Virus record (IMG/VR): IMGVR_UViG_2695420859_000012
Strand: one strand, 5' to 3'
DNA: 64,000 nt
Origin: a virus
Lineage: Duplodnaviria; Heunggongvirae; Uroviricota; Caudoviricetes
Position numbers and translations under genes: made by a program
Notes under the pieces: generated by a model
Database searches by the model: none
The model's input: only the letters and a program-made list of their open reading frames with translations
What the model was told of the DNA's origin: nothing
Shown: positions 13,004-55,014 of the stretch, piece by piece
Layout: each line of letters begins with the position of its first letter
How positions within the stretch are numbered: position 1 is the stretch's first letter

Positions 13004-13117
13004 AGATCCCTCTAAAACACACAGAGCGCGTCCATGCGCTCTAAAACAACTTGTTTACTGCATTTTCTAACCAACTTGTTTTCTGGGTTGTTTAATTAGG
13101 TCTGGGCATGTCTTATT

Positions 13118-13475: not shown

Positions 13476-14366
13476 TTATGCCGGTAAAGCAATTTCTAAC
13501 GGTTTATCCAAAGGTTGTTTGTCGAATGCCAGCAGTGGCAGCGTGTCAGGCAGTCGACGACCAAAGTCAGGGTTTCGATACACCCCATACAACGGAGACG
13601 TAAAGCTCAGGTTGTGAATGTCCTTGAGCAACTTCACAATGCTGGCCTCGTCCACCAGACTGTCGGCAATGTCCTGAATCGTCGTGCCACGATTCCGCCC
13701 AGCTTTTGCCAGGGAACTGTTCTTGTGGTAGTCCGCCACCAGATCACGCAGTGCACGGCGACGACGAGACTCGCTCATTGCGAACAACTCTTTGACGATC
13801 GCCTCGTTATCACCCGGGTCGGAACGGAAATGGCGCTGGAATACACGCAGTGCACTTTCATAGCTCTTCGGTCGCTCAGGGCGGATGAACTTAAACCCTG
13901 CTTTCATGGCGAAGGGATTGTATTTGCTCATCGAGGACTGGATCTCAATGATTGGCCGGTCATGCATCCTGCTAACCAGGTTAATCATTCGATAAGAGAC
14001 GCCTACGCCACGATACTGAGTATCCACAACTGAGCGACTGATCACCGCAAAGTTGTTATTCACGTACCGACCCCAGTACTGGTTAGCCACGGTGGTATTA
14101 GTGGTTGGTTTCAACTTAGGAAACATGCGGTGGCGAGGTGCCAACAGTAGTTTCGGGTAAGCCATAACCACGACGCCCACCAGACGGTCATCAAGTTCGC
14201 AGCGATAGTAAGTTGGCGCGAAAGGTTTGCCGTCTGTTTTGTAGTGAAGCGACTTAAGAGCGTGCCAGTCCTCTACAGTTCCCTTTGTAACAGTCATTCG
14301 CTCCAGAAAGTCCAGATGACGCGGAAACTCTTCAGGGCGGTAGCGTTTAATGATGATGTCCGTCAT
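13476..14366 (-). CDS. GNAT-like acetyltransferase-fold protein with C-terminal extension (hypothetical)
   Basis: Segment resembling the GNAT acetyl-CoA-binding motif (SVVDTQYRGVGVSYRMINLV); start overlaps the stop of the upstream ABC ATPase gene. Confidence 0.35.
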   Translation of the reverse strand: MTDIIIKRYRPEEFPRHLDFLERMTVTKGTVEDWHALKSLHYKTDGKPFAPTYYRCELDDRLVGVVVMAYPKLLLAPRHRMFPKLKPTTNTTVANQYWGRYVNNNFAVISRSVVDTQYRGVGVSYRMINLVSRMHDRPIIEIQSSMSKYNPFAMKAGFKFIRPERPKSYESALRVFQRHFRSDPGDNEAIVKELFAMSESRRRRALRDLVADYHKNSSLAKAGRNRGTTIQDIADSLVDEASIVKLLKDIHNLSFTSPLYGVYRNPDFGRRLPDTLPLLAFDKQPLDKPLEIALPA

Positions 14367-15028
14367 GAATGGACCTCATCGTGACTACCATTGCGATATT
14401 CCACCTTCACGCGTTCTTTGTAGTGCTTGGTGATCTGCATATCCGGGCGCAGCGCGTTCTTCAGGTCTTCGTGAGTCGTCGCCACCATTACCGTCGCACC
14501 AACCTTTCGAGCGGCACGCTGGAGGTTAGACGCCACAACCTGAGCGGTTACACGGTCGAGAACAGCGCCGAACTCGTCAGCAGCCCACACTTTAGCGCCT
14601 GACTCAATCAGTTTGGCAATCTTGAGACGATATTTCTGGCCGTCTGACATTTCAGAAGGCTTGCGAACAAACAGATATGCATCGTTCAGACCAGCCATAG
14701 ATAACAACCCAAGCGCATCACTGGTCGTTTTGCCCAACTGATCGATGACGTTAACCTCATTATCGAAGGTAAAATCATCGATGGAGGCTACAGACAGCCC
14801 TTCATCCTTCATCTGTCGTTGCAACTCGCGCAGCACAACGGATTTGCCGGAACCGGATTGGCCGGTGATGTACACCACATCGCCCTGCTTCACTTCCAGC
14901 TCCAGATTGTCGTAAAGCGTCCACTCTTTTTCGTCCAGGCCAAGCCCGAACGACTCAGCGATTTCCAACGTGCGCGTGGTTTTATTTACGCGTGTCTGAA
15001 ACGATACGTTGATGATGTATTTGCTCAT
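14363..15028 (-). CDS. ABC-type ATPase (stand-alone nucleotide-binding domain)
   Basis: Walker A (GQSGSGKS), ABC signature-like MSDGQKYRL, Walker B (VWAADEF). Confidence 0.6.
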   Translation of the reverse strand: MSKYIINVSFQTRVNKTTRTLEIAESFGLGLDEKEWTLYDNLELEVKQGDVVYITGQSGSGKSVVLRELQRQMKDEGLSVASIDDFTFDNEVNVIDQLGKTTSDALGLLSMAGLNDAYLFVRKPSEMSDGQKYRLKIAKLIESGAKVWAADEFGAVLDRVTAQVVASNLQRAARKVGATVMVATTHEDLKNALRPDMQITKHYKERVKVEYRNGSHDEVHS

Positions 15029-15693
15029 GCAGCCATCTCCCCGGAAGAGATCTTCTCCGCATATGCCACAAATGCGTCTACCCCGCTTTCTCCCGTCATT
15101 TCTTCCATGTGGGCAAGCAAATCACCAACAACAATGGCAGAGCCAGCAGGGAGCGTTTTAAAGCCCAATACGTCGACAACACGTACTTCTTCCGCTGCAA
15201 CTTCACGACTGATCTCGGTGTGTTCATCCTTCTGTCGTTTAGTTTCTTCGCCAAGATCGATAACTAGCGAGTCGGTGTCCATTTCTTCTGTCATACTGCC
15301 AACGAGAACATTCAACTCACGCTCTTCAAAGCCGAAAACCTCGATATCGTCCAGAACAAGCGACTCAAGCTCTTTCTGTAGCTTAATTGCATCGTAATCA
15401 ATGCTGGCAAGTCGGTTATCTTCAAGGCGCTTCGCACGAACCTCGTCATCACTGAGATCATCGCGAACAATAACCGGTACGCGCTCAAGTCCAGCAAAAA
15501 TTGCAGCCTCACGGCGGCCGTGGCCAGTAATAATTACGTCGTTCTTATCGACCGTAATTGGCTGGTCAAATCCGCGCTTTTTAATGGCTGCGGCTAGATC
15601 TCGGATCTGCTGTTCATCATGCTTTTTGGCATTCATCTCATAGGGAATAAGATCTGCCGGGTCGCGATATACGATTTCAAACTTTTTGGTCAT
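15025..15693 (-). CDS. ParB-like nuclease domain protein
   Basis: ParB N-terminal domain motif (ITGHGRREAA); start placed at the internal Met overlapping the stop of the upstream gene (track start 15726). Confidence 0.6.
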   Translation of the reverse strand: MTKKFEIVYRDPADLIPYEMNAKKHDEQQIRDLAAAIKKRGFDQPITVDKNDVIITGHGRREAAIFAGLERVPVIVRDDLSDDEVRAKRLEDNRLASIDYDAIKLQKELESLVLDDIEVFGFEERELNVLVGSMTEEMDTDSLVIDLGEETKRQKDEHTEISREVAAEEVRVVDVLGFKTLPAGSAIVVGDLLAHMEEMTGESGVDAFVAYAEKISSGEMAA

Positions 15694-16391
15694 TACATAC
15701 GCTCCTTGTAGTAGTCGACCAGCCACACCAGAGCCTCACCAGCGTTCTCCATTTCATTACCGGTGTTAATAGCCTGCTCTTTGATGATGTTTTTTATGGT
15801 TTCTGCAACACGATCTGACGCATCGAAAGTTACTTTGAAGCGCATGGTCTGATGTTCCGCACCCACACGTTCGGTTTTCTCTCGTTTGTCGGTATCGACA
15901 GGCTCATCACTACCACGAGACAACGCCTCCAGTGCTTCAAGGTCGATTGCCGCCTCTTTTGCTAAAACCATCGAGATTTCGTCGTCATACGGGGCGATTT
16001 CAGACAGTTGATAGTCAAGTTCTGACTGAATTTCTTCAATGAAGCGTTGCAATGCGATTTGGTCGTCTTCACCGTATCGCTCGTTGTCCACCAGTGACAT
16101 CTGTTTAGCTACGACATCGCTAATTTTGCCCACAGAAAGCACCGGAACCGTTGAAATTCCTTGCTCAATAGCAGCACGCCAGCGATGTTCGCCGCCGAGG
16201 ATTTCAAAAAATCCATCTTCAAGTTCACGAGCCAAAATTGGCTTAAAAAAGCCCAATTTTTCGATAGAACCTTTCAGTTTTTCAAAATTCTGCGCACCAA
16301 CCGAATTGGTGTTCCAGGTATTCGGGCGAAGGTTGGCAACATCAACCTGCAAAATCGTGATTTTTACATCCATTTTATTGCTACAATCCAC
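15693..16391 (-). CDS. ParB-like nuclease domain protein
   Basis: ParB N-terminal domain motif (ILGGEHRWRAA); first gene of the operon, divergent from the helicase gene. Confidence 0.6.
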   Translation of the reverse strand: MDCSNKMDVKITILQVDVANLRPNTWNTNSVGAQNFEKLKGSIEKLGFFKPILARELEDGFFEILGGEHRWRAAIEQGISTVPVLSVGKISDVVAKQMSLVDNERYGEDDQIALQRFIEEIQSELDYQLSEIAPYDDEISMVLAKEAAIDLEALEALSRGSDEPVDTDKREKTERVGAEHQTMRFKVTFDASDRVAETIKNIIKEQAINTGNEMENAGEALVWLVDYYKERM

Positions 16392-16455: not shown

Positions 16456-18015
16456 ATGACTGTTCGGATTGTATCTAACGCAGTAAATGCGCTTATTTCT
16501 GGCGCAGATGACAAGGTAAAGCAACTGGTGCAGCAAATGTTGAGCTACGAAGTCGAGACTGGCGACTGGAAGGGCACAAGCACGATGTTCAACTGGAGTA
16601 AAAACTCGTTCCCTGCTGGCTTTGCCAAGCCTGTAGCGGCGAACTTGAACAAGGCGGGCATCAAATGTGTTCATATCCGCAAAGACAAAGCCCCGGCGCT
16701 TGGTAAACCAAATCCGGCGGTTAACCCATTCCCATACAATCCTGATTATGCGTATCAGGATCAGACTGTGGAAACACTGGTTCGAGAGGGAATGATGATT
16801 GCGCAGATCGCTACTGGTGGCGGGAAATCTAACGTTGCCTGCAAAGCAGCTGCACGTATCGGTCGAATGACATTATTTTTAACAACCCGCTCTGTTCTGA
16901 TGTTTCAAATGGCCGAAAACTTCCAGAGATCCATCGACTACCGCGCCGAAAATGGCGAACCGTGGTTAAAAGACCAAAAGGTTGGAGTCATTGGCTCGGG
17001 TGAGTTCCAGGTATCACGACATATCAACGTCGCTACAGTTCAAACTCTTGCAAGTTTCCTCGAAGAACCACCACGCGATGCAACACCAGATAAGAAAAGC
17101 TACCACCTCAAACGTCGGGAGTTGGTGAAACGCTTCCTTTCAAGTGTCTCTCTTCTTATTCTGGAAGAGGCGCATGAGTCTTCAGGCTCAAATTTCTATG
17201 ACATCGCCAGATTATGTGTGAACGCAGACTATCGTCTGGCGCTTACAGCCACGCCGTTCATGAAGGATTCGACGGAAGCCAACATGCGCCTGATGGCGGT
17301 GGCCGGGCGAATTGAAATTAAAGTCACAGAAAAGTACCTGATTGATCGAGGCATTCTGGCAAAGCCGTACTTCCTTTATCATAAAGTTGCCTACAAGCCA
17401 GACGAGGCCAGAATCAAGGCCGAACTTGCCAACAAACACCTCAATTTTAGAGTTGGTATGAGCACCGCCTACCAAAAGGCTTATCAGTTGGGGATCGTGT
17501 ATAATTTGGGACGTAACGAGGCCATTGTTCGCGAAGCATTGCTCTATAAGCAACATTCTCTCAATTGTATGACTCTGGTTCGTCTTAAACGCCACGGGCA
17601 AATCCTGATGGAAATGATGAAAGAGTCCGGCCTTAGAGTTGACTTCATCTATGGGGAATCTAACCAGGCGACAAGGCAAGCAAAGCTGAACAGTTTAGCG
17701 TCTGGAGAAATAGATGTTTTAATAGGCTCGACTATTCTGGATGTCGGTGTTGATGTGCCAAGCGTTGGTGCGGTCATTCTTGCTGGTGGTGGGAAAGCAG
17801 AAGTTGAAATGAGGCAGCGTGTCGGTCGTGGCTTACGAGCCAAAAAAAATCAGGCAAACGTGTGTTTTATCACTGATTTCATTGACATTAGCAACAAATA
17901 CCTGTTGTCTCACTCTTATGAGCGAAAACACATCATCGACACCACACCTGGCTTTGCAGAAGGTGTATTGCCTATTGATGGAGCATTCGATTTTGGAGTT
18001 CTGAAACGAGATTAG
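16456..18015 (+). CDS. Superfamily 2 (DEAD/DEAH-box type) helicase
   Basis: Walker A (ATGGGKS), DEAH-like motif II (LILEEAHES), motif III (ALTATP), motif VI (RQRVGRGLR); AGGAAAGAGG RBS before the ATG. Confidence 0.75.
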   Translation: MTVRIVSNAVNALISGADDKVKQLVQQMLSYEVETGDWKGTSTMFNWSKNSFPAGFAKPVAANLNKAGIKCVHIRKDKAPALGKPNPAVNPFPYNPDYAYQDQTVETLVREGMMIAQIATGGGKSNVACKAAARIGRMTLFLTTRSVLMFQMAENFQRSIDYRAENGEPWLKDQKVGVIGSGEFQVSRHINVATVQTLASFLEEPPRDATPDKKSYHLKRRELVKRFLSSVSLLILEEAHESSGSNFYDIARLCVNADYRLALTATPFMKDSTEANMRLMAVAGRIEIKVTEKYLIDRGILAKPYFLYHKVAYKPDEARIKAELANKHLNFRVGMSTAYQKAYQLGIVYNLGRNEAIVREALLYKQHSLNCMTLVRLKRHGQILMEMMKESGLRVDFIYGESNQATRQAKLNSLASGEIDVLIGSTILDVGVDVPSVGAVILAGGGKAEVEMRQRVGRGLRAKKNQANVCFITDFIDISNKYLLSHSYERKHIIDTTPGFAEGVLPIDGAFDFGVLKRD

Positions 18016-18791: not shown

Positions 18792-19316
18792 ATGACAACC
18801 AAAGATATTACCTACGGTATCCAAGCTGAACTCTGGCCGCGAGATTACACTAACGTTGAAAAACTACTGATGTTCTGGCGCAGAGAACAAATTCCTGTAA
18901 GGGTCACTCTCGAAGATGGCCAGGCGTTTTGCATGTACGTTTATGGCCTCATGCCATCTCGTAACAAAGTTGACCTTTGCCCAGCCCCTTTTGACAAAGA
19001 AAATCGTATAAGGCTCCCACTTGAACGCATTAGTACAATTGAATCAGGTGTGGTTGACAGTATCGCTCACGATTTCAAAGGTCGACTAACAGTTCACCCT
19101 GATTATGTCGATAATCGGCCATCACGCCGCGATTTTTTTGCAATTTGCAACCAAGCCTACAAAGCAAACAAATCTATAAGGGTGTACATGGCGGATGGCC
19201 GTGAAATTGAGGGGGTGTCAGCAGGCGCAGATGCTTGTCAGGTTACACTACGTGTCGAGAACGGTAGAAAAATAGTTGTTTTGTTCGATTGGGTTGAACG
19301 AATTTTGCCTTTTTGA
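18792..19316 (+). CDS. Hypothetical protein (175 aa)
   Basis: ORF from the internal Met (MTTKDITY) immediately after the lipoprotein stop; the track ORF begins at 18714 and overlaps. Confidence 0.4.
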   Translation: MTTKDITYGIQAELWPRDYTNVEKLLMFWRREQIPVRVTLEDGQAFCMYVYGLMPSRNKVDLCPAPFDKENRIRLPLERISTIESGVVDSIAHDFKGRLTVHPDYVDNRPSRRDFFAICNQAYKANKSIRVYMADGREIEGVSAGADACQVTLRVENGRKIVVLFDWVERILPF

Positions 19317-21068: not shown

Positions 21069-21072
21069 AATC

Positions 21073-21100
21073 GAGCGCCCACTATGGGCGCTTTTTTTCG
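21073..21100 (+). terminator. Rho-independent terminator
   Basis: GAGCGCCCA-CTAT-GGGCGCT hairpin followed by TTTTTTTCGTTT; a second GC hairpin plus T-run follows at about 21120-21150. Confidence 0.7.
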
Positions 21101-21684
21101 TTTCCAATACACCTACCATAACGCGCCATCATTGGCGCGTTTTTATTGTCTTTAACTCACTCCAACAACATAAAAATAAGCGCCAAAATAACGCCATAGA
21201 CGCGCTTTTATATCCTTACCAGTACATGCCCATTACTTAACACATTAACGCGCTTAAAACGCATTATATTGCGCTATAGAGTATGGTTAATCATTGGCTT
21301 TTAGTCTTGCTATGTGATCCGCGTTTATTTGTCGGTGCGGATCGGCATTTTGTTTTGTTCTGTATCCGCTCGCGTATTATGTGCGCGTGATTTTTCACAT
21401 AATCACACCACTTAATCACGTATGTGATTATGCTACGAAAGAAATCTGGATGTCTCAGGCGACGAAAGTCATCATAATTTCCCCCGCTCACCTGTCCGAC
21501 AACCGCTGGTTGGATTCCACCAGCTTCCCGATGTTTTTTCTACACAAAGGCGAATGCAGCCGTTTCCCGAAAAAATCCTGGCCGTTCCCCGTCGGCTCAT
21601 GAATACGTTCCTCGCCGTTTCTGAAAATTTCCCTGCGGCAGCTGGTGGCTATAGAGAAAGGGCCGTTTCTGGCCCTCTTCTCAG

Positions 21685-22167
21685 TTACACGCCATCAAGG
21701 ATGTGGATGCGGTTGCTTGCGTATACATTCAGCATAAAGTTAGCGCAAAACAGTTTCCATGTATCAACGCCAGCGGTATACGTAATGTTTTTGCATTTAA
21801 TTGCATTGTTGGCGATCCGCATCCCCTGCGATACTGCTTCATCGTCGGAAAATTTGAACGACGATTGAGTTTTAATCCAGACAGAAATCTGCGTAGCGAA
21901 CTCAATCAGCTTGGACTGGCAGAATCGCCCGGAGCGCACCGGAAAGACGAACGTTCCGAATCCAGAATTTACCACATATGCTTTCTCAAATACCCGCGAG
22001 TAACGACGATTGCCAATGATGTCGCGTGCAATAATGCATTTTTCTTGTGCTGACAGTTCTACCGTCTCATTGTCGCGCCATGCACCAAGTACTCGTTTTT
22101 CAATGTCAGAGAACGTTACAGCGATATTGCCATGTGCGGGTGCGTTTACAGTAGCGATAAAATTCAT
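21685..22167 (-). CDS. Hypothetical protein (160 aa)
   Basis: ORF preceded by an AAGGA RBS and the conserved AACAAnTTGTTTTCT upstream element. Confidence 0.5.
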   Translation of the reverse strand: MNFIATVNAPAHGNIAVTFSDIEKRVLGAWRDNETVELSAQEKCIIARDIIGNRRYSRVFEKAYVVNSGFGTFVFPVRSGRFCQSKLIEFATQISVWIKTQSSFKFSDDEAVSQGMRIANNAIKCKNITYTAGVDTWKLFCANFMLNVYASNRIHILDGV

Positions 22168-22517
22168 GATTAATTCCTTATCGTAAATAACAAATTGTTT
22201 TCTTGTTGGTGTTAATTATCGTTGTACGAATAAGGCGTCAAAGTGGAAAGTTGCGGTAGCCGGACGGGAACAGGTGGGTTTGTCGGTTGCCTGGAGGTAA
22301 GAGGTTGGTGTTATTAGCCTGAGGGAAACAGGATGGTCATTTAAGACCACCAATGCTGGTGGCCTTAATAATTATCGCCCGATTACGCTAAGGATCTTTT
22401 CCTCAACTGATTTGTTGTTGCGACTAAACTGCCTTGCGTATCTGATGACAGAAGAGGCGTTTTGCTTTCTGACCATCTCGGCTCTTTCCTTCAGGCGTTT
22501 CTTGAAATCGCCCATAT

Positions 22518-22892: not shown

Positions 22893-22983
22893 GATGGTTT
22901 CCTTATTAACTTGCTTCAGTAAAATCATTTTCACAAATCAGATAAGGCAGAAAACAAATTGTTATCGGGCTTAATAAAATGGC

Positions 22984-23530: not shown

Positions 23531-23842
23531 TCAGGCTATTGCCATCACTGATGCTCTCTGAATTTCTTGCTGGGCCACGCGGTTAACTTCCATCAAGGCC
23601 AGTTCGAGCTGATGTTCCGGCCACATTCTTTGAAACGCCATCCAGCCTTTTCCACGCTGGCGACGAACATTCATTACATAACGAGTAAAGGTGTTTTTAT
23701 CGAAAGACACCGCTGTTTCACGGAACAGACGAATAGAGGTTCCATTGGCAACGATGTCCAGCAAAGTTAATTGAGCAACCAGCGCAGGCTTCTCTTTTCT
23801 CTTCTGGTCTTTGTCCAGACCAAGAACCAATGATTTTTTCAT
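23531..23842 (-). CDS. Hypothetical protein (104 aa)
   Basis: Start placed at the internal Met (MKKSLVLGL); conserved upstream element directly 5'. Confidence 0.45.
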   Translation of the reverse strand: MKKSLVLGLDKDQKRKEKPALVAQLTLLDIVANGTSIRLFRETAVSFDKNTFTRYVMNVRRQRGKGWMAFQRMWPEHQLELALMEVNRVAQQEIQRASVMAIA

Positions 23843-23996
23843 CACAACTCCGTAAACAACTTGTTTTCTCAATGGCGTAAATAATACCAATAAAAAAACG
23901 GCTACAAAGCATAATGATCAGGTGCATGAGCGATATGCAGGTTCTTCCCTGCGGCTACAGATTAAGTTAAGCCAGCAATGCTGGCTTTGGTTGGGA

Positions 23997-24326
23997 TTAC
24001 GCGAATACCTCAAGAAACTCCTGAACGTCCCAATGCTGGACGAGGTGAAGATAGACCTTAGAAATCACGTCATTTTCGCTATCGCATGTGAAGTAGTACT
24101 TCTGGCTGCGGTTGTATGTGTCCACACAAAATTCGCTCATATCCATAAAGTCAGCATCATCACCCAGGTCGCTAATCATCAAAGCAGGTGCATCATCACG
24201 AGTCATCAGCTCCAGCACCCATCTTGAATTAATCAGAGTGGAAGACCAACCTTCCAGCTCATAAAACTGGTCAAACTCTTTTTGAGTCAATTTCTTAATT
24301 TGGTTGATGTCGATATTTGCAAACAT
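23997..24326 (-). CDS. Hypothetical protein (110 aa)
   Basis: Start placed at the internal Met (MFANIDINQ) preceded by AAGGA; conserved upstream element directly 5'. Confidence 0.45.
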   Translation of the reverse strand: MFANIDINQIKKLTQKEFDQFYELEGWSSTLINSRWVLELMTRDDAPALMISDLGDDADFMDMSEFCVDTYNRSQKYYFTCDSENDVISKVYLHLVQHWDVQEFLEVFA

Positions 24327-24499
24327 AAAGCAATCCTTAAACAAGATGTTTTCTTAATGGTGTTATTATCGCAATAACGCACAGGCGAAAAAGGATTTTA
24401 TTCCGGTGAATGTGGTTTTGGCAGTGAGTTTTCAGGTTCAGTACAGAGTACACTTTTTACATTATTCTGATTTAGTGGCCGAAGATGGCTGGTGGGCAG

Positions 24500-24850
24500 A
24501 ATAATCATCTCCCCGAAAACCTACTGAAATCGATTGTGACCCGTTGGCTGTCTGGCACAATTACGCTGTAACTGGGCATTCAGAGGGAATCCAGCGGTAA
24601 GTAGGTTCGCCTTCACGTGAGCGCCTCTCTTCTTCCCGCACATTACAGGTGGGTAGCCGCAACTCTCCCTCTCGCTATGCCGGTACGCCGCCGTTCCTGA
24701 ACCGGCATCGAGCCTTTTCCCGAAATCCACACAGGCAACTCGACCGTTTCCCTGAAAACCTCCAGCCGTTCCCCGAAGGCAACCCAGCCGTTTCTGTAGC
24801 GGGATGCAACCTTTTCCCTGTATGGACCGAAGGCTGACCGTAGGGGTGTT
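24500..24850. repeat. Degenerate direct repeats of a CCGTT(T)CC(C)GAAAA-type unit (second locus at about 21537-21680)
   Basis: At least six related copies here (CCGTTCCTGAACC, CCTTTTCCCGAAATCC, CCGTTTCCCTGAAAACC, CCGTTCCCCGAAGG, CCGTTTCTGTAGCG, CCTTTTCCCTGTATGG) and four at 21537-21680. Confidence 0.5.
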
Positions 24851-25019
24851 ACGGGGGATAAAATCAGGAGTTGAATAAATACGAAAAAGGAGGCGACACC
24901 CCTCCTTCCCTCCCCACTTATACATACCTGGCTTCTTCGCTATACATGTTGTGTTTTATCTGTCTCAACCTCTCTATAGGCGTTAATGCTCACTCCTTCC
25001 AGAATGTTCTATACGGCAA

Positions 25020-25620
25020 CTATTTCTGTTGGTGAATTGGGTGTGTTGTTCTCTCTGTCGGTGTATGTGGTTTCGTTCGTTTTGCGGTGGTTCTTCTATG
25101 GGGTGTTCTCGTCGTTTTGGTGATTGTTCTTCTCCGTGTATGGAGTAATGGCAGGTGGGCGATTCCTTTCGTTGTTGTGTTTGAGTTGTTTGTCTGGAGT
25201 GTGTGAAAGGCTTTTGCAGTTATTCGTGTATTGGGTAATGGCATTTCCCGTGATTGTTGTGTTTCGTGTCTTTTGGGATTGAGAGAAACCTTGCGGTTAC
25301 AGGCTTCGTTGGGGTTTCAGTGATTCTGGTGTTCTTCGCTGTTTGGGGAATGGCGTGTCGTGGGTATCGCGCGTATGAATGTTTTCGGATTGCCTGTGAA
25401 AGTTAGGTTGGTTGTCCGGTAGCCTGGGGAGAAGAGGTGGGTCTTTTCGGTAGCCTGGGGAGAAGAGGTGGGTCTTTTCGGTAGCCTGCCATAAAGAGGT
25501 TGGTTGTTTTTGGAAATGGCATTTGTGTTATTTAGTTGTTTTGTTATGCCTGAAAATAAGTTGTTTATATGGTTGTGTAACGCAACGGGAGCGATTTTGA
25601 GCGTGTGTTTTTGTTGGTAG
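25020..25620. repeat. G+T-skewed non-coding repeat region with a 32-bp tandem direct repeat (about 25418-25500)
   Basis: Forward strand strongly G/T-rich for about 600 bp; recurring GG(A/G)(G/A)(T/A)AATGGC units at about 25142, 25232, 25345 and 25511; GGTAGCCTGGGGAGAAGAGGTGGGTCTTTTC repeated about 2.3 times in tandem. Only low-complexity ORFs are present. Confidence 0.6.
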
Positions 25621-25921
25621 TGTGTTGGGTCGTCTGTGGTGAAAATTGGACGCTGTGGCGCTGTCTGCTGCGTAGAGTTACGGGTATAAGCAGTGATGTG
25701 TGAAAACGTCAATTTTTTAGACCAAATCGGGTGAAAGCGTTGATGTTTCGTTGATCTGTTATTCAGTTGTTTTCTTGATTGTATAAACAACTATAACTTA
25801 TTGATATTTAAGGATGTGATTGCGGGTATGGAAGAAGAGTAGTGGCGATCAACGGATTCTTATAGAAAAGAATCAAATTGTGACCGCCATTATCAACTGA
25901 TTGATTTGTTTACTTGTGTAG

Positions 25922-26320
25922 TCAGTTCTCGAAATGAATAGGGTCAACGTAATGCCGCTCACCGCTTTTACCATTACACAGCACTGTAACTTTCGCCTTT
26001 TCACTCCAGGCTGAGTATAGAAAGTTCCCATCAGGTTGAACATGGTAACGAGAGAAGTAAACATCGCCGACTGAGGCGTCGAACATGTTCCTATCTTTTT
26101 CACTTTGGGCAAGCGAGATGGATATCACCGAATTCCCATTTGGGGAAACGATTTTAAATTTATTCCCTATATCCATAACAATATTGTAACCAGGTAATTG
26201 CTTGTGTGTTTCCGGATCTATTTTCATGCATCGTGGGTACACGATAGTGTTAGGCTCTTCAACTGGCGTGGCATTAGCAGAAAGCACAAAAAATATTAGT
26301 GCCAATGGTGCATATTTCAT
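25922..26320 (-). CDS. Secreted protein (hypothetical, 132 aa)
   Basis: Predicted signal peptide (MKYAPLALIFFVLSANA). Confidence 0.5.
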   Translation of the reverse strand: MKYAPLALIFFVLSANATPVEEPNTIVYPRCMKIDPETHKQLPGYNIVMDIGNKFKIVSPNGNSVISISLAQSEKDRNMFDASVGDVYFSRYHVQPDGNFLYSAWSEKAKVTVLCNGKSGERHYVDPIHFEN

Positions 26321-26432
26321 TTATCCCTCACAATTTCCAATTTTCCAGACCATCGTCTATTTCAGCGTCAGGGTGGAATTGTACCGCATCAAATCCTACA
26401 TCGAGCACCTTTCGAATGTTCTTGATGGTTTG

Positions 26433-26621
26433 CTATGTGACACCGTAATCACGCAGCTTTTCTTCCCTCCCCTGACTCCCCCATACTCCGTTTCTGTACC
26501 CAATTGAGTCCGAGATTGTATGGTGCTCGAAACAGATATTTGGTAGACACTCAGAGTCATGCTGTGTAACGAGGGTAGGGCTACTAACTGTCGTCTTATA
26601 CAATTTGGTGAGTTTCAGCAT
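26433..26621 (-). CDS. Small hypothetical protein (62 aa)
   Basis: Start overlaps the stop region of the upstream gene; no other support. Confidence 0.25.
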   Translation of the reverse strand: MLKLTKLYKTTVSSPTLVTQHDSECLPNICFEHHTISDSIGYRNGVWGSQGREEKLRDYGVT

Positions 26622-27016: not shown

Positions 27017-29050
27017 TTACTTAACCTGGTGGCCAGGTTTAGCACCAGCATCCGGGCTTAACAGGAAGATATCTTTCCCGCCGGGGCCAGCAGCCATCAC
27101 CATGCCTTCAGAGATACCGAAGCGCATTTTACGTGGTGCCAGGTTAGCCACCATAATGGTGTGACGACCAATCAGTGCCTGTGGATCTGGATAAGCGGAA
27201 CGGATGCCTGAGAAGACATTACGCTTTTCACCACCGAGATCCAGCGTCAGGCGAAGCAGTTTGTCAGAACCTTCTACAAACTCTGCGTTTTCAATCAGCG
27301 CCACGCGCAGGTCAACTTTGGCGAAGTCGTCAAAGGTGATAGTTTCCTGAATCGGGTCGTCAGCCAGTGGGCCAGTTACCGGTGCGGCTGTGGCTTTCAC
27401 TTCTTCTTTGGATGCTTCCACCAGTGCTTCAACCTGCTTCATATCGATGCGGTTATACAGTGCCTTGAACGGATTCACTTTATGGCCCAGCAGCGGTTGC
27501 TGGATACCATCCCAGGTCAGTTCTGTATTCAGGAATGCTTCTGCACGTTCAGTCAGTTTCGGCAGTACCGGTTTCAGGTACGTCATCAGCACGCGGAACA
27601 GGTTAATGCCCATAGAGCAAATCGCCTGCAGATCGGCATCGCGTCCTTCCTGCTTTGCCACCACCCACGGAGCCTGTTCATCAACATAGCGGTTAGCCAG
27701 GTCAGCCAGTGCCATGATTTCACGGATAGCTTTGCCAAATTCGCGGCTTTCCCATGCTTCGCCAATCACTTCAGCGGCATCAGTAAAGGTTTTGTACAGT
27801 TGCGGGTCAGCCAGTTCGCTTGCCAGCACGCCGTCAAAACGCTTGTTGATAAAGCCTGCATTACGGGAGGCCAGGTTAACCACTTTGTTAACGATATCGG
27901 CATTCACACGCTGAACGAAATCTTCCAGGTTGAGATCGATATCATCAATGCGCGAAGAGAGTTTCGCAGTGTAGTAGTAACGCAGGCTGTCGGCGTCAAA
28001 ATGATTCAGCCAGGTGCTGGCTTTAATAAAGGTGCCGCGAGACTTGGACATCTTCGCGCCGTTCACCGTCACATAGCCGTGAACAAACAGGTTGGTCGGC
28101 TTGCGGAAGTTGCTGCCTTCCAGCATGGCAGGCCAGAACAGGCTGTGGAAGTAAACGATATCTTTGCCGATGAAGTGGTACAGCTCGGCGGTGGAGTCTT
28201 TCTTCCAGTATTCGTCGAAGCTGGTAGTGTCGCCGCGTTTGTCGCACAGATTCTTGAAGGAACCCATGTAGCCAATCGGCGCGTCCAGCCAGACGTAGAA
28301 GTATTTGCCCGGTGCGTTCGGAATTTCAAAACCGAAGTAAGGTGCGTCACGGGAGATATCCCACTGTTGCAGGCCGGATTCAAACCACTCCTGCATTTTG
28401 TTTGCCACCTGCTCCTGCAACGCACCGCTGCGGGTCCATGCCTGCAACATTTCGCTGAAAGAAGGCAGATCAAAGAAGAAGTGTTCGGAATCACGCATTA
28501 CCGGTGTAGCGCCAGAAACCACTGATTTCGGCTCGATCAGTTCCGTCGGGCTGTATGTCGCGCCGCAGACTTCACAGTTATCGCCGTATTGATCCGGCGC
28601 TTTACATTTCGGGCATGTGCCTTTTACAAAACGGTCCGGCAGGAACATGCCTTTTTCCGGGTCGTACAGCTGAGAGATGGTGCGGTTTTTAATAAAACCG
28701 TTCTCTTTCAGGCGAGTATAGATAAGCTCGGACAACTGACGGTTCTCTTCGCTGTGCGTCGAGTGATAGTTGTCATAGCTGATGTTAAAGCCTGCGAAAT
28801 CAGTCTGATGTTCCTGACTCATTTCGCCAATCATCTGTTCCGGTGTGATACCAAGCTGCTGTGCTTTCAGCATGATTGGCGTACCGTGGGCATCGTCGGC
28901 ACAGATGAAATTAACCTCGTGGCCGCGCATTCGCTGGTAACGAACCCAGACATCAGCCTGGATGTGCTCCAGCATATGGCCGAGGTGGATTGAGCCGTTA
29001 GCGTACGGCAGCGCGCACGTCACCAGAATTTTCTTCGCGACTTGGGTCAT
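27017..29050 (-). CDS. metG: Methionine--tRNA ligase (host-type, near-identical to E. coli MetG by recall)
   Basis: 677-aa protein from [29 protein letters not shown] with HLGH and KMSKS (GAKMSKSRG) class I signatures, C4 zinc knuckle and C-terminal tRNA-binding domain. The track ORF extends 43 codons further upstream to 29179. Confidence 0.95.
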
Positions 29051-29207
29051 AGTAGGCATTACTTCTTTGTAGTGAAAAGGGGCTTGATAGTAACAAAATG
29101 GCCTTATGTCTGCCATGTGATAACAGCATTTCTCATAAATGATTAAATGTCGTAGCTGGAGTACACTACAAGGCGACAATTGCGCAAATTAAAATAAAGG
29201 AGACGGG

Positions 29208-53094: not shown

Positions 53095-53215
53095 TAATTA
53101 TTCACATATCCACAGGATAGATCCTAATAAAGAGATCCATAGATAGATCCTTATATAGATCAAATAAGATCCCCGATCGCTGTAAGCCGCGCCACGACTG
53201 GTCTGAAGTCATGTT
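53095..53215. promoter_or_regulatory. Origin-like region: DnaA-box-like site and GATC cluster upstream of repA iterons
   Basis: ATATCCACA (one mismatch to the TTATCCACA DnaA box) at about 53101-53113, followed by GATAGATCC-type repeats containing at least five GATC sites in about 70 bp. Confidence 0.5.
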
Positions 53216-53218
53216 CAT

Positions 53219-53321
53219 GTATGCTGTCAGCGGTAATTGATAGTCTGTCAGCGGTTCACCGTATGCTGCCAACTGTTTTTGGTATTCTGTCAGCGGCAAA
53301 TCAAGTATGCTGTCAGCGGTT
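53219..53321. repeat. Iterons upstream of repA (about 5 copies, 22-24 bp spacing)
   Basis: (G)TATGCTGTCAGCGGT and variants (TCTGTCAGCGGT, TATGCTGCCAACTGT, TATTCTGTCAGCGG) at regular two-turn spacing. Confidence 0.8.
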
Positions 53322-53340
53322 GAATGACAAAGGTGTCCAC

Positions 53341-54435
53341 ATGTCCACAAAAAATAAAAAAGGTAAAAATAACAAAGAAGTAGAAGATAACATCGACAAC
53401 TTTGAAGAAGGTTCCCTTGAATTGTACACAGGGGAACTTGTCCCTAATAGCAACAATACAGTCCAACCAATTGCGTTGATGCGACTGGGGTTGTTCGTCC
53501 CCACGCTTAAGGGAACAAAATACAGTAAACGTAACAAGCCAAATGAGATCGATGCTTCAAAGGAGCTTGTCCAGCTCGAAGTAGCCCGTTCTGAAGGCTA
53601 TTCCGATATCAAGATAACCGGTCCTCGTCTCGACATGGATCATGATTTCAAAACGTGGGTGGGCGTTGTGCGTTCGCTGGCAGAATACGGCGAACCTAAC
53701 GGTCGTGTCGAGTTAAGCATCACGAAATTTGCGAAGTTTTGTGGCTATCCATCGTCACAGATCCGCAAAACACTCCGCGACCGGCTTACAAACAGTCTTT
53801 TGAAGATCATGCGTACAACTCTGTCTTTCCAGAGAACGTATGAAGAAAAGAACGTCGACGGCTCTAACAAGATCTCGCTTCTGATGGTGCACCTCATCAA
53901 TAGCGTGGACTACAACGAGCAGAAAGATACGGTGGTGTTCTATGCAGAACCGAAGCTGGCCGAACTATATCGCTTTGACCATAAGGTTCTTTTGCAGTTA
54001 AAGGTTATCAATAAGCTACCACGCAAAGAAACAGCACAGGCTCTGTACACCTTCATCGAAAGTCTTCCAACCAAGCCTGCGCCGGTATCGCTTGCTCGAT
54101 TGCGTGCGCGACTCAATTTGAGTAGCAGGAATGTCAGCTCGCAGAATCAGACTATACGTAACGGCTTAAAAGCTCTCCAAGATTTGGGCTATCTCGAATA
54201 CAGCGAGATTAAGCGTGGGCGGTCGATCTATATCCAGATTCACAGCCGCAATCCAAAACTCAAAGTCGCACCGCCAAAACCTGAAGACATCGAACCCAAA
54301 AAACCAGATGAGAAAGCCGGGGAAATTGATGCCAAACAGAACATTATCAATAAGATAACCGAACTTTCGCAGAATTTGACGCCTGAAAATATCAAGATGA
54401 TTGAGATCCTTTCCAATAGTCTCAAACTGCTTTGA
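53341..54435 (+). CDS. repA: Iteron-binding replication initiator RepA (putative)
   Basis: 365-aa basic protein flanked on both sides by arrays of its probable binding iterons. Start placed at the internal Met after an AAAGGTG RBS; the track ORF start at 53221 lies inside the iterons. Confidence 0.7.
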   Translation: MSTKNKKGKNNKEVEDNIDNFEEGSLELYTGELVPNSNNTVQPIALMRLGLFVPTLKGTKYSKRNKPNEIDASKELVQLEVARSEGYSDIKITGPRLDMDHDFKTWVGVVRSLAEYGEPNGRVELSITKFAKFCGYPSSQIRKTLRDRLTNSLLKIMRTTLSFQRTYEEKNVDGSNKISLLMVHLINSVDYNEQKDTVVFYAEPKLAELYRFDHKVLLQLKVINKLPRKETAQALYTFIESLPTKPAPVSLARLRARLNLSSRNVSSQNQTIRNGLKALQDLGYLEYSEIKRGRSIYIQIHSRNPKLKVAPPKPEDIEPKKPDEKAGEIDAKQNIINKITELSQNLTPENIKMIEILSNSLKLL

Positions 54436-54970
54436 TATGCTGTCAGCGGTGAAATGTATGCTATCAGCGGCTATTTTTCTGAAAAGTATGCTGTGAACGG
54501 TTAAAGATATGCTACCAGCGGTATAGTGAGATGAACGTATGCTGTGAGCGGTAAATCATCTATCACCACTCAATGCTCTGCCATACCTCCCCAGTGGTTA
54601 CTAACCTCGAAGAGTGCATTCCATATAGGTTTGCGCTCACTAACATTCTATTGCTATTGCGCTGATTGCTTGTAGTGAAAGGCATTTATTGCCTGCTACT
54701 CCCTGATAGAATGTATGCTGTCAGCGGTGTTTTATTGAGGAATTTTTGTTTGGATATGCTATCAGCGGTAATTAATGGTATATGTCAGACCTTCGTATGC
54801 TGCCAGCGGTAATTTTGTTCTGGTTATACCCATACCGGGACACATTATTCATGCAATGTCTTAAGTATGCTGTCAGCGGTAAAAAATCGAGTAAAGTATG
54901 CTGTGAGCGGTGAGATAGACTCTCGATATGCTATCAGCGGTAGTTGATTGTGTATGCTGTCAGCGGTGAC
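54436..54970. repeat. Iteron arrays downstream of repA (about 12 copies in two clusters)
   Basis: TATGCTGTCAGCGGT, TATGCTATCAGCGG, TATGCTGTGAACGG, TATGCTACCAGCGG, TATGCTGTGAGCGG and similar at about 54436-54552 and 54712-54967. Confidence 0.8.
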
Positions 54971-55014
54971 GACTATGAAATATGACTGCGGAACGTGCCG
55001 CAGTCAGTTTGCAT

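Follow-up and report, generated by a model that had tools for sequence, protein, structure and literature searches.

A conserved, gene-free and strand-skewed repeat region of SSU5-like phage-plasmids, a candidate control site for lytic replication

What does the largest gene-free stretch of a phage-plasmid do? The question is raised by a segment of about 1.6 kb (24350-25920) in a 64,000-nucleotide stretch of DNA from a tailed virus (IMG/VR record IMGVR_UViG_2695420859_000012), hereafter the window, to which all positions refer. A sequence-only reading had singled out this segment as an ORF-poor, strand-skewed repeat region (ORF, open reading frame) and had listed a lytic origin, a centromere-like or packaging-related site and a long non-coding RNA as functions that such features would fit, none of them being established; this last statement remains true. 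We argue here that the region is non-coding, is maintained by selection, and most likely serves the phage backbone as a DNA control site acting in cis. More tentatively, we favor the possibility that it acts in cis as the control region for lytic (phage-mode) replication.

The query stretch is 100% identical to the E. coli plasmid pSJC33-2 (NZ_CP080257.1, 113 kb). The region finds matches in 839 plasmid records and in 243 of 5,426 complete E. coli genomes, where it always lies on a plasmid of about 107-114 kb. By annotation, the window carries a siphovirus structural module, a terminase, nrdAB, thyA, dfrA51, rnhA, a Dam-type methylase, and a RepB-family plasmid initiator; beyond the window, the same plasmid encodes dnaE, a primase, a DnaB-like helicase, a ligase, a 5'-3' exonuclease, tRNAs, and a tyrosine recombinase. 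The nearest phages to the region are Cyrano (94.7%), PhiR41_1, and SSU5 (68%), together with Klebsiella phage-plasmids. On the strength of this gene set and of these relatives, we therefore assign the element to the SSU5/pHCM2-type phage-plasmids of E. coli, with chromosome-like metG and apbC genes carried as cargo. Phage-plasmids of this type are frequent in clinical and farm Enterobacteriaceae and carry resistance genes (here dfrA51). The element thus has replisome genes of its own (dnaE, primase, DnaB-like helicase, RNase HI, 5'-3' exonuclease, and ligase), and no lytic origin is given in the annotation of the plasmid; to our knowledge, none has been mapped to date in the SSU5/pHCM2 type.

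The gap itself extends over 1,577 bp (24345-25921), between the minus-strand ORFs 23997-24344 and 25922-26320, and exceeds by a wide margin every other gene-free stretch of the plasmid. RefSeq annotates no coding sequence within it in the identical NZ_CP080257.1, and no ORF in it is conserved, in agreement with the ~1.5 kb first described. Its center is occupied by a tract in which the plus strand is extremely rich in G and T. Indeed, the G+T content reaches 69-73% in 600-nt windows starting at 24951-25251, against a mean of 49.8% (standard deviation 3.2) for the window, so that the G+T-rich forward strand noticed at 25020-25620 stands about 7 standard deviations above the mean and is the highest of the whole window. 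The plus-strand composition of this interval is T 40, G 33, A 14, and C 12%, and in the tract the GC skew rises to +0.55 and the AT skew falls to -0.62. The ORFs of the tract are, as the sequence-only reading put it, of low complexity: in most alleles, all five (45-157 aa) are interrupted by a frameshift or a stop or have lost their start. This is true even of the E. coli clade, whose members are 88-99% identical and in which intact copies amount, for instance, to 1/20 and 1/23. These ORFs are compositional artefacts, the abundance of minus-strand frames being due to the poverty of this strand in T and G. A protein-coding function on either strand was rejected on an alignment of 42 sequences, in which substitutions have no codon periodicity (1605/1518/1389), indel lengths are evenly distributed modulo 3, and the open frames differ between clades without being conserved in frame. 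Small hydrophobic peptides made from the G+T-rich plus strand were also discarded, since their ORFs are broken in most alleles. As for DNA shape, a search for intrinsic bending returned only a marginal 11-bp TT/AA periodicity.

How strongly is this DNA maintained? The alignment comprises 42 representatives sharing less than 97% identity, drawn from BLAST hits and from 67 IMG/VR loci that were fetched using the invariant right-end block of the region as an anchor. All relatives examined, which are SSU5-like and come from Escherichia, Salmonella, Klebsiella, and Enterobacter, have the gap at the same position; DNA matches were also found in Citrobacter and Cronobacter, and a scan of species-representative genomes added Kluyvera only, the other matches occurring at about the chance rate by our estimate. 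The sequence-only reading had asked whether relatives have a conserved gene across the region or lack its repeats altogether: no such gene was found, and the repeats are present. Between the E. coli and the Salmonella/Enterobacter clades, the region is 59-71% identical, for 31% expected by chance at its composition, whereas the 4-fold degenerate sites of four neighboring genes are 36-40% identical for the same pair of clades and are thus saturated. The region, including its skewed tract, is under purifying selection, and near-invariant blocks are shared across four genera. The G+T bias is itself kept in every SSU5-like relative (62-82% per 100 nt). Among the low-frequency variants of the E. 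coli clade, 48 go from G/T to A/C and 21 in the reverse direction, a net flow against the skew; although these counts are small, they are consistent with selection holding the bias and give no support to a mutational cause. Mutation bias resulting from single-strandedness was rejected as the cause of the skew, as variants go against it and C>T changes per C are not above G>A changes per G. Comparison across clades leaves us certain that the region is functional. A decaying gene remnant or a functionless neutral spacer, which would suit the lack of any gene and the short ORFs called here by some annotators, is extremely improbable, given a region that evolves far more slowly than 4-fold sites, keeps near-invariant blocks in four genera, and retains its skew against the net direction of new variants.

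Does the region belong to the plasmid or to the phage? In E. coli genomes, terL is found 216 times, the region 214 (at least 80% coverage) to 243 times, and this rep type 129 times; the region thus follows the phage backbone rather than the rep gene: of the E. coli plasmids with this backbone, only about half have this rep type. The rep gene lies 28 kb from the region and is P1-like, with about five iterons before it and about 11 after it (GTATGCTGTCAGCGGT). A plasmid-mode origin or an incA-like locus of the plasmid Rep was rejected, because these iterons differ from the motifs of the region and are 28 kb away. An alternative origin in the helicase-primase module, whose primase and DnaB-like helicase are separate genes 41 kb from the region, was also rejected, no repeat or iteron cluster being found there. 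Some copies of the region occur outside phage-plasmids: large, non-phage Klebsiella IncF plasmids of 170-240 kb carry fragments flanked by the insertion sequences IS5/IS903/IS3 and made of the right half of the region with a Klebsiella-type right flank (L006, 5690-6470; L007, 5690-6350). These fragments are remnants of recombination between phage-plasmids and conjugative plasmids. The region was not retained as an independent mobile module, since these partial copies are insertion-sequence-flanked remnants of a Klebsiella SSU5-like element.

At least four classes of repeats populate the gap: CCGTTTCCC units (class I), GTAATGGC-type sites (class II), 31-nt units (class III), and operator-like elements (Table 1). 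The class I units of its left half, absent from the earlier account, form a direct-repeat array (array A) with spacings of 22, 31, 22, 22, and 22 bp, a phasing with a period of about two helical turns, as in iteron-type origins. The motif CCKTTYCYS has 16 matches in the window for 7.6 expected, and 10 of the 16 fall within two clusters, the second of which (array B) is located in the convergent intergenic region 21070-21685, 3.0 kb to the left of array A. We compared the class I loci in the SSU5-like elements having enough flank (n = 30). Array A has the same place and orientation in 30/30 of them, and in all 30 it is paired with array B, 1.4-4.2 kb apart and in the same orientation, with almost no copies between the two or inverted. 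Between the arrays, only p160 (21685-22167, minus strand) and p119 are always present in the loci compared.

The class II sites lie within the skewed tract. Four are present here (four to six overall), and up to seven matches to a looser motif are found in the Salmonella clade; no block of the tract is better conserved than GTGTATGGAGTAATGGC (94% identity). The consensus GG(A/G)(G/A)(T/A)AATGGC, previously proposed for four spaced copies, matches only once as written (25142), but four sites made of a G-rich part and AATGGC do exist (25142, 25233, 25345, and 25512), for 0.03 matches of the relaxed motif expected in composition-matched shuffles of the tract. Two of the four belong to the longer 24-nt repeat TTCTCCGTGTATGGAGTAATGGCA. 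The tandem unit reported as 32 bp long and repeated about 2.3 times proved to be 31 nt long according to Tandem Repeats Finder (TRF), the number of copies being right (2.3 perfect copies, 25417-25488); TRF alternatively gives 2.8 copies of the 31-nt unit at 89% identity, to 25504. Counted by the GTAGCCTG core, one, two, and three copies of this unit occur in 8, 54, and 8 of 70 loci. On the left edge of the tract, the block CCCACTTATAC that flanks the hairpin 24884-24910 is conserved, and the hairpin itself is partly conserved between clades. On the right side, two AT-rich segments (25491-25580 and 25731-25820; GC 26-29% per 80 bp) are situated 0.7-0.9 kb from array A, and similar windows exist at many promoters. 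The second one holds CGTTGAT repeats at 25738 and 25749 (CGTTGAY class) and TGTTATTTATTTGTTTTCTT, which is nearly invariant across clades. Further right come the invariant right-end block, directly past which the variable cargo genes begin, and an IHF-like match at 25891.

Several of these repeats recur next door, and the region is therefore a dense set of sites that also decorate the adjoining early operon. A second group of class III units (array B) was found, with one to three copies, in 14/15 relatives scanned, and the intergenic region that harbors it is G-skewed (+0.33). Moreover, a 26-nt element stands 10-20 nt ahead of the start of several small early genes. At p160, p138, p119, and p115 (23997-24344, minus strand), it lies between the ribosome site and a -10-like hexamer (22189-22214, 22953-22966, 23855-23880, and 24340-24365, with GATAAT or TATTAT just upstream). 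At p115, the -10-like GATAAT (24370-24365, minus strand) is preceded by TGC, and the block is 80-88% conserved across clades. The core of the element is palindrome-like, AAACAAnTTGTTT, with 2-3 nt between the arms in some copies, and further copies of the palindrome occur at 13044, 26869, 26920, 34165, and 34894. By analogy with the dispersed C1 operators of P1, this element looks like a shared early promoter and operator. Two copies inside the gap precede no gene and have no -10 hexamer. A protein-level follow-up of p119 and p160 gave no functional lead. The convergent intergenic region 21070-21685 contains, besides class I array B, two strong terminator-like hairpins, GCGC-rich repeats, TAATCAC/GTGATTA repeats, and, beside the array, a hairpin made of two opposed Chi-like arms; it constitutes a second dense non-coding control region.

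Table 1. Coordinates of the features of the gene-free region and of related sites in the window
Feature	Position	Strand	Description
p115 promoter/operator-like module	24340..24373	-	26-nt element 24340-24365, palindrome-like core AAACAnnTTGTTT
Chi site	24488..24495	+	GCTGGTGG, in non-coding DNA
Class I array A	24691..24818	+	six CCKTTYCYS (CCGTTTCCC-type) direct repeats, starts 24691, 24713, 24744, 24766, 24788, 24810
Terminator-like hairpin and T-run	24884..24910	-	at left edge of skewed tract
G+T-skewed tract	25020..25640	+	72-73% G+T on ~650 bp; minus strand 73% A+C
Class II site 1	25130..25153	+	TTCTCCGTGTATGGAGTAATGGCA, longer 24-nt repeat
Class II site 2	25220..25243	+	TTATTCGTGTATTGGGTAATGGCA
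Class II site 3	25338..25356	+	GCTGTTTGGGGAATGGCGT
Class III array A	25417..25509	+	31-nt unit CGGTAGCCTGGGGAGAAGAGGTGGGTCTTTT; two perfect copies and one at 74%
Class II site 4	25505..25524	+	TGTTTTTGGAAATGGCATTT
26-nt element copy without gene	25555..25580	-	inside AT-rich segment
AT-rich segment	25731..25820		80-bp window at 25741: GC 26%, lowest 0.4% of window
26-nt element copy without gene, second	25761-25786		inside AT-rich 25731-25820
Invariant right-end block	25844..25888		inverted repeat GGCGATCA (25844-25851) / TGACCGCC (25881-25888) around TCTTATAGAAA
Class I array B	21560..21671	+	four CCGTTTCCC-type repeats, starts 21560, 21582, 21615, 21663
Class III array B	22254..22342	+	three 31-nt units (68-77% identity), upstream of p160 promoter-like module
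Plasmid-replicon iterons	53199-53340 and 54435-54987		GTATGCTGTCAGCGGT; P1 oriR/incA layout

Is the region expressed as RNA? We used published RNA-seq data for E. coli strain LF82, covering 10 lysogen or macrophage samples (log2 values, table S1 of PMC9928086). The library's strand-specificity is unstated, although antisense transcripts are reported, and the table has no row for the plus strand of the region (PMC9928086). CYRAN_103 and CYRAN_104 are ORFs placed inside the region by the Cyrano annotators, and the strand counted for them is the minus strand here. In the 10 samples, both are at or near the detection floor (log2 2.3-4.3 and 2.6-4.7, respectively), between the right neighbor CYRAN_102 (5.6-9.2) and the left neighbor CYRAN_105, the p115 homologue (2.3-7.8, and 5.5-7.8 in 8/10 samples) (PMC9928086). 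Hence, the minus strand of the region is off in lysogens, between two active genes. As CYRAN_105 is expressed though the region is silent, the p115 homologue seems to have its own promoter. Moreover, the signal drops at or before the right edge of the region (25800-25920), upstream of the tract, which is therefore not needed for the drop. A minus-strand RNA of 25020-25620 would contain 33% C and 12% G (GC skew of the plus strand, +0.38 to +0.55) and would be nearly structure-free, with a minimum free energy of -89 kcal/mol for 701 nt. The plus-strand RNA folds no better than shuffled sequences (z = +0.9), and for either strand the consensus fold of the 42 sequences reaches no more than -1 to -10 kcal/mol per 120 nt. 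Rfam 15, which includes OLE, GOLLD, ROOL, and HEARO, gives no gathering-score match in the window, and even at E<=5 the region has no match. A consensus scan of 23800-26600 detected no plus-strand sigma-70-like promoter. The structured or lysogeny-expressed long non-coding RNA, one of the early suggestions, is thus unsupported. Protein-binding motifs were counted as well: GGA (10 for 11.8 expected) and AANAANAA (3 for 2.4) are not enriched beyond composition, and neither are the (ARN)4, the Hfq/Crc, the CsrA, and the Rho YC motifs. Protein-sponge RNAs of the CsrB/RsmZ and CrcZ type were rejected for this lack of GGA/AANAANAA enrichment and because lysogens yield no more than detection-floor signal on the annotated strand. 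The antitoxin repeats of type III toxin-antitoxin (ToxIN-like) systems were discarded too, as tandem repeats of ~34-40 nt upstream of a ToxN-like endoribonuclease gene are not what is found here.

Which function could unite these features? The favored reading, control of lytic replication, is based on anatomy and exclusion, from which we infer protein binding, looping, opening, and initiation at the region. It draws on the phased repeats and their distant partner array, the AT-rich segments, and the operator-like sites; on the possession of a full replisome with no annotated lytic origin and a helicase-primase module with no repeat cluster; and on a plasmid-mode origin that lies elsewhere, in a region that follows the backbone, is silent in lysogeny, and forms the largest gap. 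The mechanism might run as follows. A phage protein would bind the phased CCGTTTCCC array (24691-24818) and its partner (21560-21671), in the manner of P4 ori and crr, and the GTAATGGC-type sites and the tandem 31-nt units would be the targets of other proteins. The 650-bp tract, of low self-pairing capacity, and the AT-rich right end could then serve as the site of duplex opening, where the DnaB-like helicase, primase, and DnaE polymerase of the phage would load. In the prophage-plasmid state the site would remain transcriptionally silent, and the operator-like elements it has in common with the early promoters would couple its firing to derepression.

Several observations weigh against such an origin. 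No DnaA box (TTATNCACA) is found on either strand of the region, GATC occurs only twice in 1.6 kb without any cluster, and the counts of Chi-like octamers, primase trinucleotides, and G-quadruplex motifs do not exceed what composition predicts. The cumulative GC skew does not switch at the region: it runs monotonically under the dominant influence of gene orientation, and its turn is at ~112 kb of the record. Gene orientations do not diverge from the region either. No recognizable initiator adjoins it, the flanking ORFs belonging to PHROG families of unknown function only, with no Rep- or O-like match in Pfam or NCBIfam. The 31-nt units and the 26-nt element are also found at early promoters and fit a purely transcriptional role equally well. 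Finally, the phage origins known to us are much shorter, and none of them requires a 650-bp G+T tract.

A purely transcriptional role is indeed the content of the strongest competing explanation, which we rank as nearly as likely as lytic replication: the region could be a transcription insulator and regulatory hub set between the right-hand cargo genes and the left early operon p115 to p160. The repeat arrays would then be operators or decoys for early-gene regulators, with class I arrays looping the operon like OL and OR of lambda, and the A+C-rich, G-poor, structure-free minus-strand transcript would be a long Rho loading tract that stops read-through. The composition and weak folding of this RNA (C 33%, G 12%, -89 kcal/mol per 701 nt), together with its lack of translation, are hallmarks of Rho utilization (rut) sites, and the fall of expression in LF82 from CYRAN_102 (5.6-9.2) to CYRAN_103 at the floor, followed by a CYRAN_105 that seemingly has its own promoter, also speaks for this reading. 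The 26-nt element and 31-nt units common to the early promoter regions point the same way, as do class I arrays that bracket the operon in all relatives and a location that coincides with the edge of the cargo hot spot. However, the LF82 drop occurs at or before 25800-25920, upstream of the tract; ~80 nt suffice for a rut site, versus 650 here; YC dinucleotides are not above composition; and Rho leaves unexplained both the excess of A over U and the conserved class II motif. Moreover, 330-480 bp separate array A from the promoter-like module closest to it, and array B is found past the last gene, not at a promoter. Neither the lytic origin nor the insulator accounts for the need of 650 bp of extreme G+T bias. 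One could imagine, with low probability, that the keto-skewed tract is a new kind of phage element in which composition rather than sequence is conserved: either a long non-self-pairing duplex between protein arrays, serving the phage's DnaB/DnaG/DnaE replisome as an opening and loading platform, or the source of a lytic RNA titrating Rho. We know of no bacterial or phage origin, terminator, or non-coding RNA class with such a composition-based design.

Two further explanations concern RNA and DNA segregation. The region might encode a long unstructured non-coding RNA made only in the lytic state (the A+C-rich minus strand or the G+U-rich plus strand), acting as a protein sponge or platform whose repeats are binding sites, for example for Rho or for the FljA/Hfq-like protein encoded by the phage 5 kb away. 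A strand composition kept while the sequence drifts, short repeated motifs all in one orientation, a minus-strand terminator-like hairpin placed exactly where the tract ends on the left, copies of the early-promoter element that have no gene and point leftward into the tract, and a conserved FljA-like RNA-binding protein nearby would all be natural for such an RNA. We nevertheless regard it as unlikely, for the annotated strand has no transcript in 10/10 lysogen or macrophage samples, the gene-less promoter-element copies miss the -10 hexamer of the real ones, the scan of 23800-26600 found no plus-strand sigma-70-like promoter, and GGA, AANAANAA, and (ARN)4 are not above composition; in addition, the hairpin 24884-24910 is not present in all clades, and two of the repeat classes recur in places typical of DNA sites. 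Less probable still, and in our judgment improbable, is a partition centromere or a packaging (pac) or injection site, the arrays being bound by ParB-like proteins or by the small terminase. Direct-repeat arrays at two dispersed places recall the dispersed centromeres of phage N15, two ParB_N-domain genes lie 8-10 kb leftward, and T5-like phages have a comparable untranslated repeat region, the injection-stop region, as a possible analogue. However, the region tracks the phage core and not the plasmid maintenance module: the centromere suggested by the sequence-only reading loses ground because the region co-occurs with terL (216 genomes) and not with the rep type (129), and because a ParA-like gene and its small partner gene, outside the window (record 12.7-13.4 kb), are a likelier partition locus. 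The terminase genes are 12 kb away, the region is internal, not at the ends, in all deposited phage records, and it has no DnaA boxes, unlike the T5 injection stop signal (iss); for a packaging site taken by itself, the evidence points in neither direction.

How does the region compare with known systems? P4 is a satellite phage able to live as a plasmid, with a bipartite origin whose 8-9 bp repeats are bound by the alpha primase-helicase. As in P4 ori and crr, two clusters of a short direct repeat are found here in the same orientation, a few kb apart (6 + 4 CCGTTTCCC-type units), but the sequences are not similar, the element lacks an alpha-like fused primase-helicase, and P4 has no 650-bp skewed tract. 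In P1, oriR/incA iterons coexist with the lytic replicon oriL, which is controlled by a C1 operator. Like P1, the element has a rep gene with iterons elsewhere, a separate operator-controlled lytic origin would be expected by analogy, and operator-like elements are present in the region; unlike P1, where oriL is inside the repL gene, no gene overlaps the region, and the iterons of the plasmid Rep are unrelated to its motifs. Rho-dependent terminators such as lambda tR1 rut share with it a C-rich, G-poor, unstructured, and untranslated transcript, on the minus strand here. The minus-strand signal is lost at the region in lysogens, before the tract begins. In contrast to a rut site, the tract is ~8 times longer, its RNA is A-rich and U-poor, and its repeats are conserved. 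Origins primed by R-loops or transcription (ColE1, T4 oriF/oriG, the mitochondrial D-loop, and herpesvirus oriLyt) are likewise non-coding, repeat-rich, and G-skewed on one strand, and the element encodes an RNase HI and a 5'-3' exonuclease; on the other hand, no promoter was found for the G-rich transcript, G amounts to 33% without excess of G-clusters or G-quadruplexes, and the T-richness is foreign to such origins. The T5 iss is defined by DnaA boxes arranged in series, and the large untranslated repeat region that contains them belongs to the terminal repeat (bioRxiv 10.1101/866236). The resemblance lies in a large untranslated region full of repeats in a siphovirus of ~100-120 kb with its own nucleotide-metabolism and replication genes, and the difference in the absence of DnaA boxes and the internal position of the region in phage records. 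As it fails at least one defining feature of each known family that could be tested, the region was assigned to none. We found no description of it in the literature searched, one 2026 preprint on an SSU5-like element lying outside that search. The region has been deposited in hundreds of sequences, yet it is either unannotated or filled with spurious short ORFs.

Additional observations were made around the region. To its right, the ORF 25922-26320 (minus strand, 132 aa) has a clear signal peptide (MKYAPLALIFFVLSANA...) and is unannotated in the identical RefSeq plasmid, where the annotated gap is therefore 2.3 kb instead of 1.6 kb. In relatives, its slot is filled by differing genes and is therefore a cargo hot spot. 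The near-chromosomal copy of metG (methionyl-tRNA synthetase; 27017-29179, minus strand) is followed to its right by apbC and adjoined by an IS1 remnant; the metG-apbC pair is also present in phage Cyrano, in which the apbC-like gene is transcribed in lysogens. The Chi site 24488 is shared by three clades (E. coli, Enterobacter/Salmonella, and Klebsiella), and another sequence replaces it in the SSU5/pHCM2 clade. Chi is found 14 times in the 64 kb for 1.2 expected from shuffles, and the intergenic sites 21517 (-), 21641 (+), 22355 (+), and 24488 (+) lie over a span of 3 kb immediately to the left of the region, and three of the four have the orientation that stops a leftward-moving RecBCD. FljA is a post-transcriptional repressor of flagellin. 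The FljA-like gene of the element (18792-19316, plus strand; Pfam Flag1_repress, E = 1.5e-84, with a weak Hfq-like C-terminal match) adjoins a helicase in 10/10 SSU5-like loci compared, and through its product the phage-plasmid may shut off the flagellin of its host. An XPB/Rad25-like SF2 helicase (16456-18015) is divergent from an operon (13476-16373, minus strand) of two ABC-type ATPase-like and two ParB_N-domain genes, for which PADLOC returned weak similarities only (PbeA and mads components); this operon could have a partition-like role, or one in defence or DNA modification.

What does this locus mean for the biology of these elements? With 1.6 kb under selection in every SSU5-like relative examined, the region is the obvious candidate place in which to seek the lytic switch. 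If it is a lytic origin or an early-operon insulator, it would provide a handle on the induction, copy-number amplification, and engineering of these phage-plasmids, and it would also supply a marker of their backbone that is independent of the variable rep gene. Even if one of these two functions proves true, its extreme strand composition, kept against the net flux of variants, would still be an unexplained design feature of the family.

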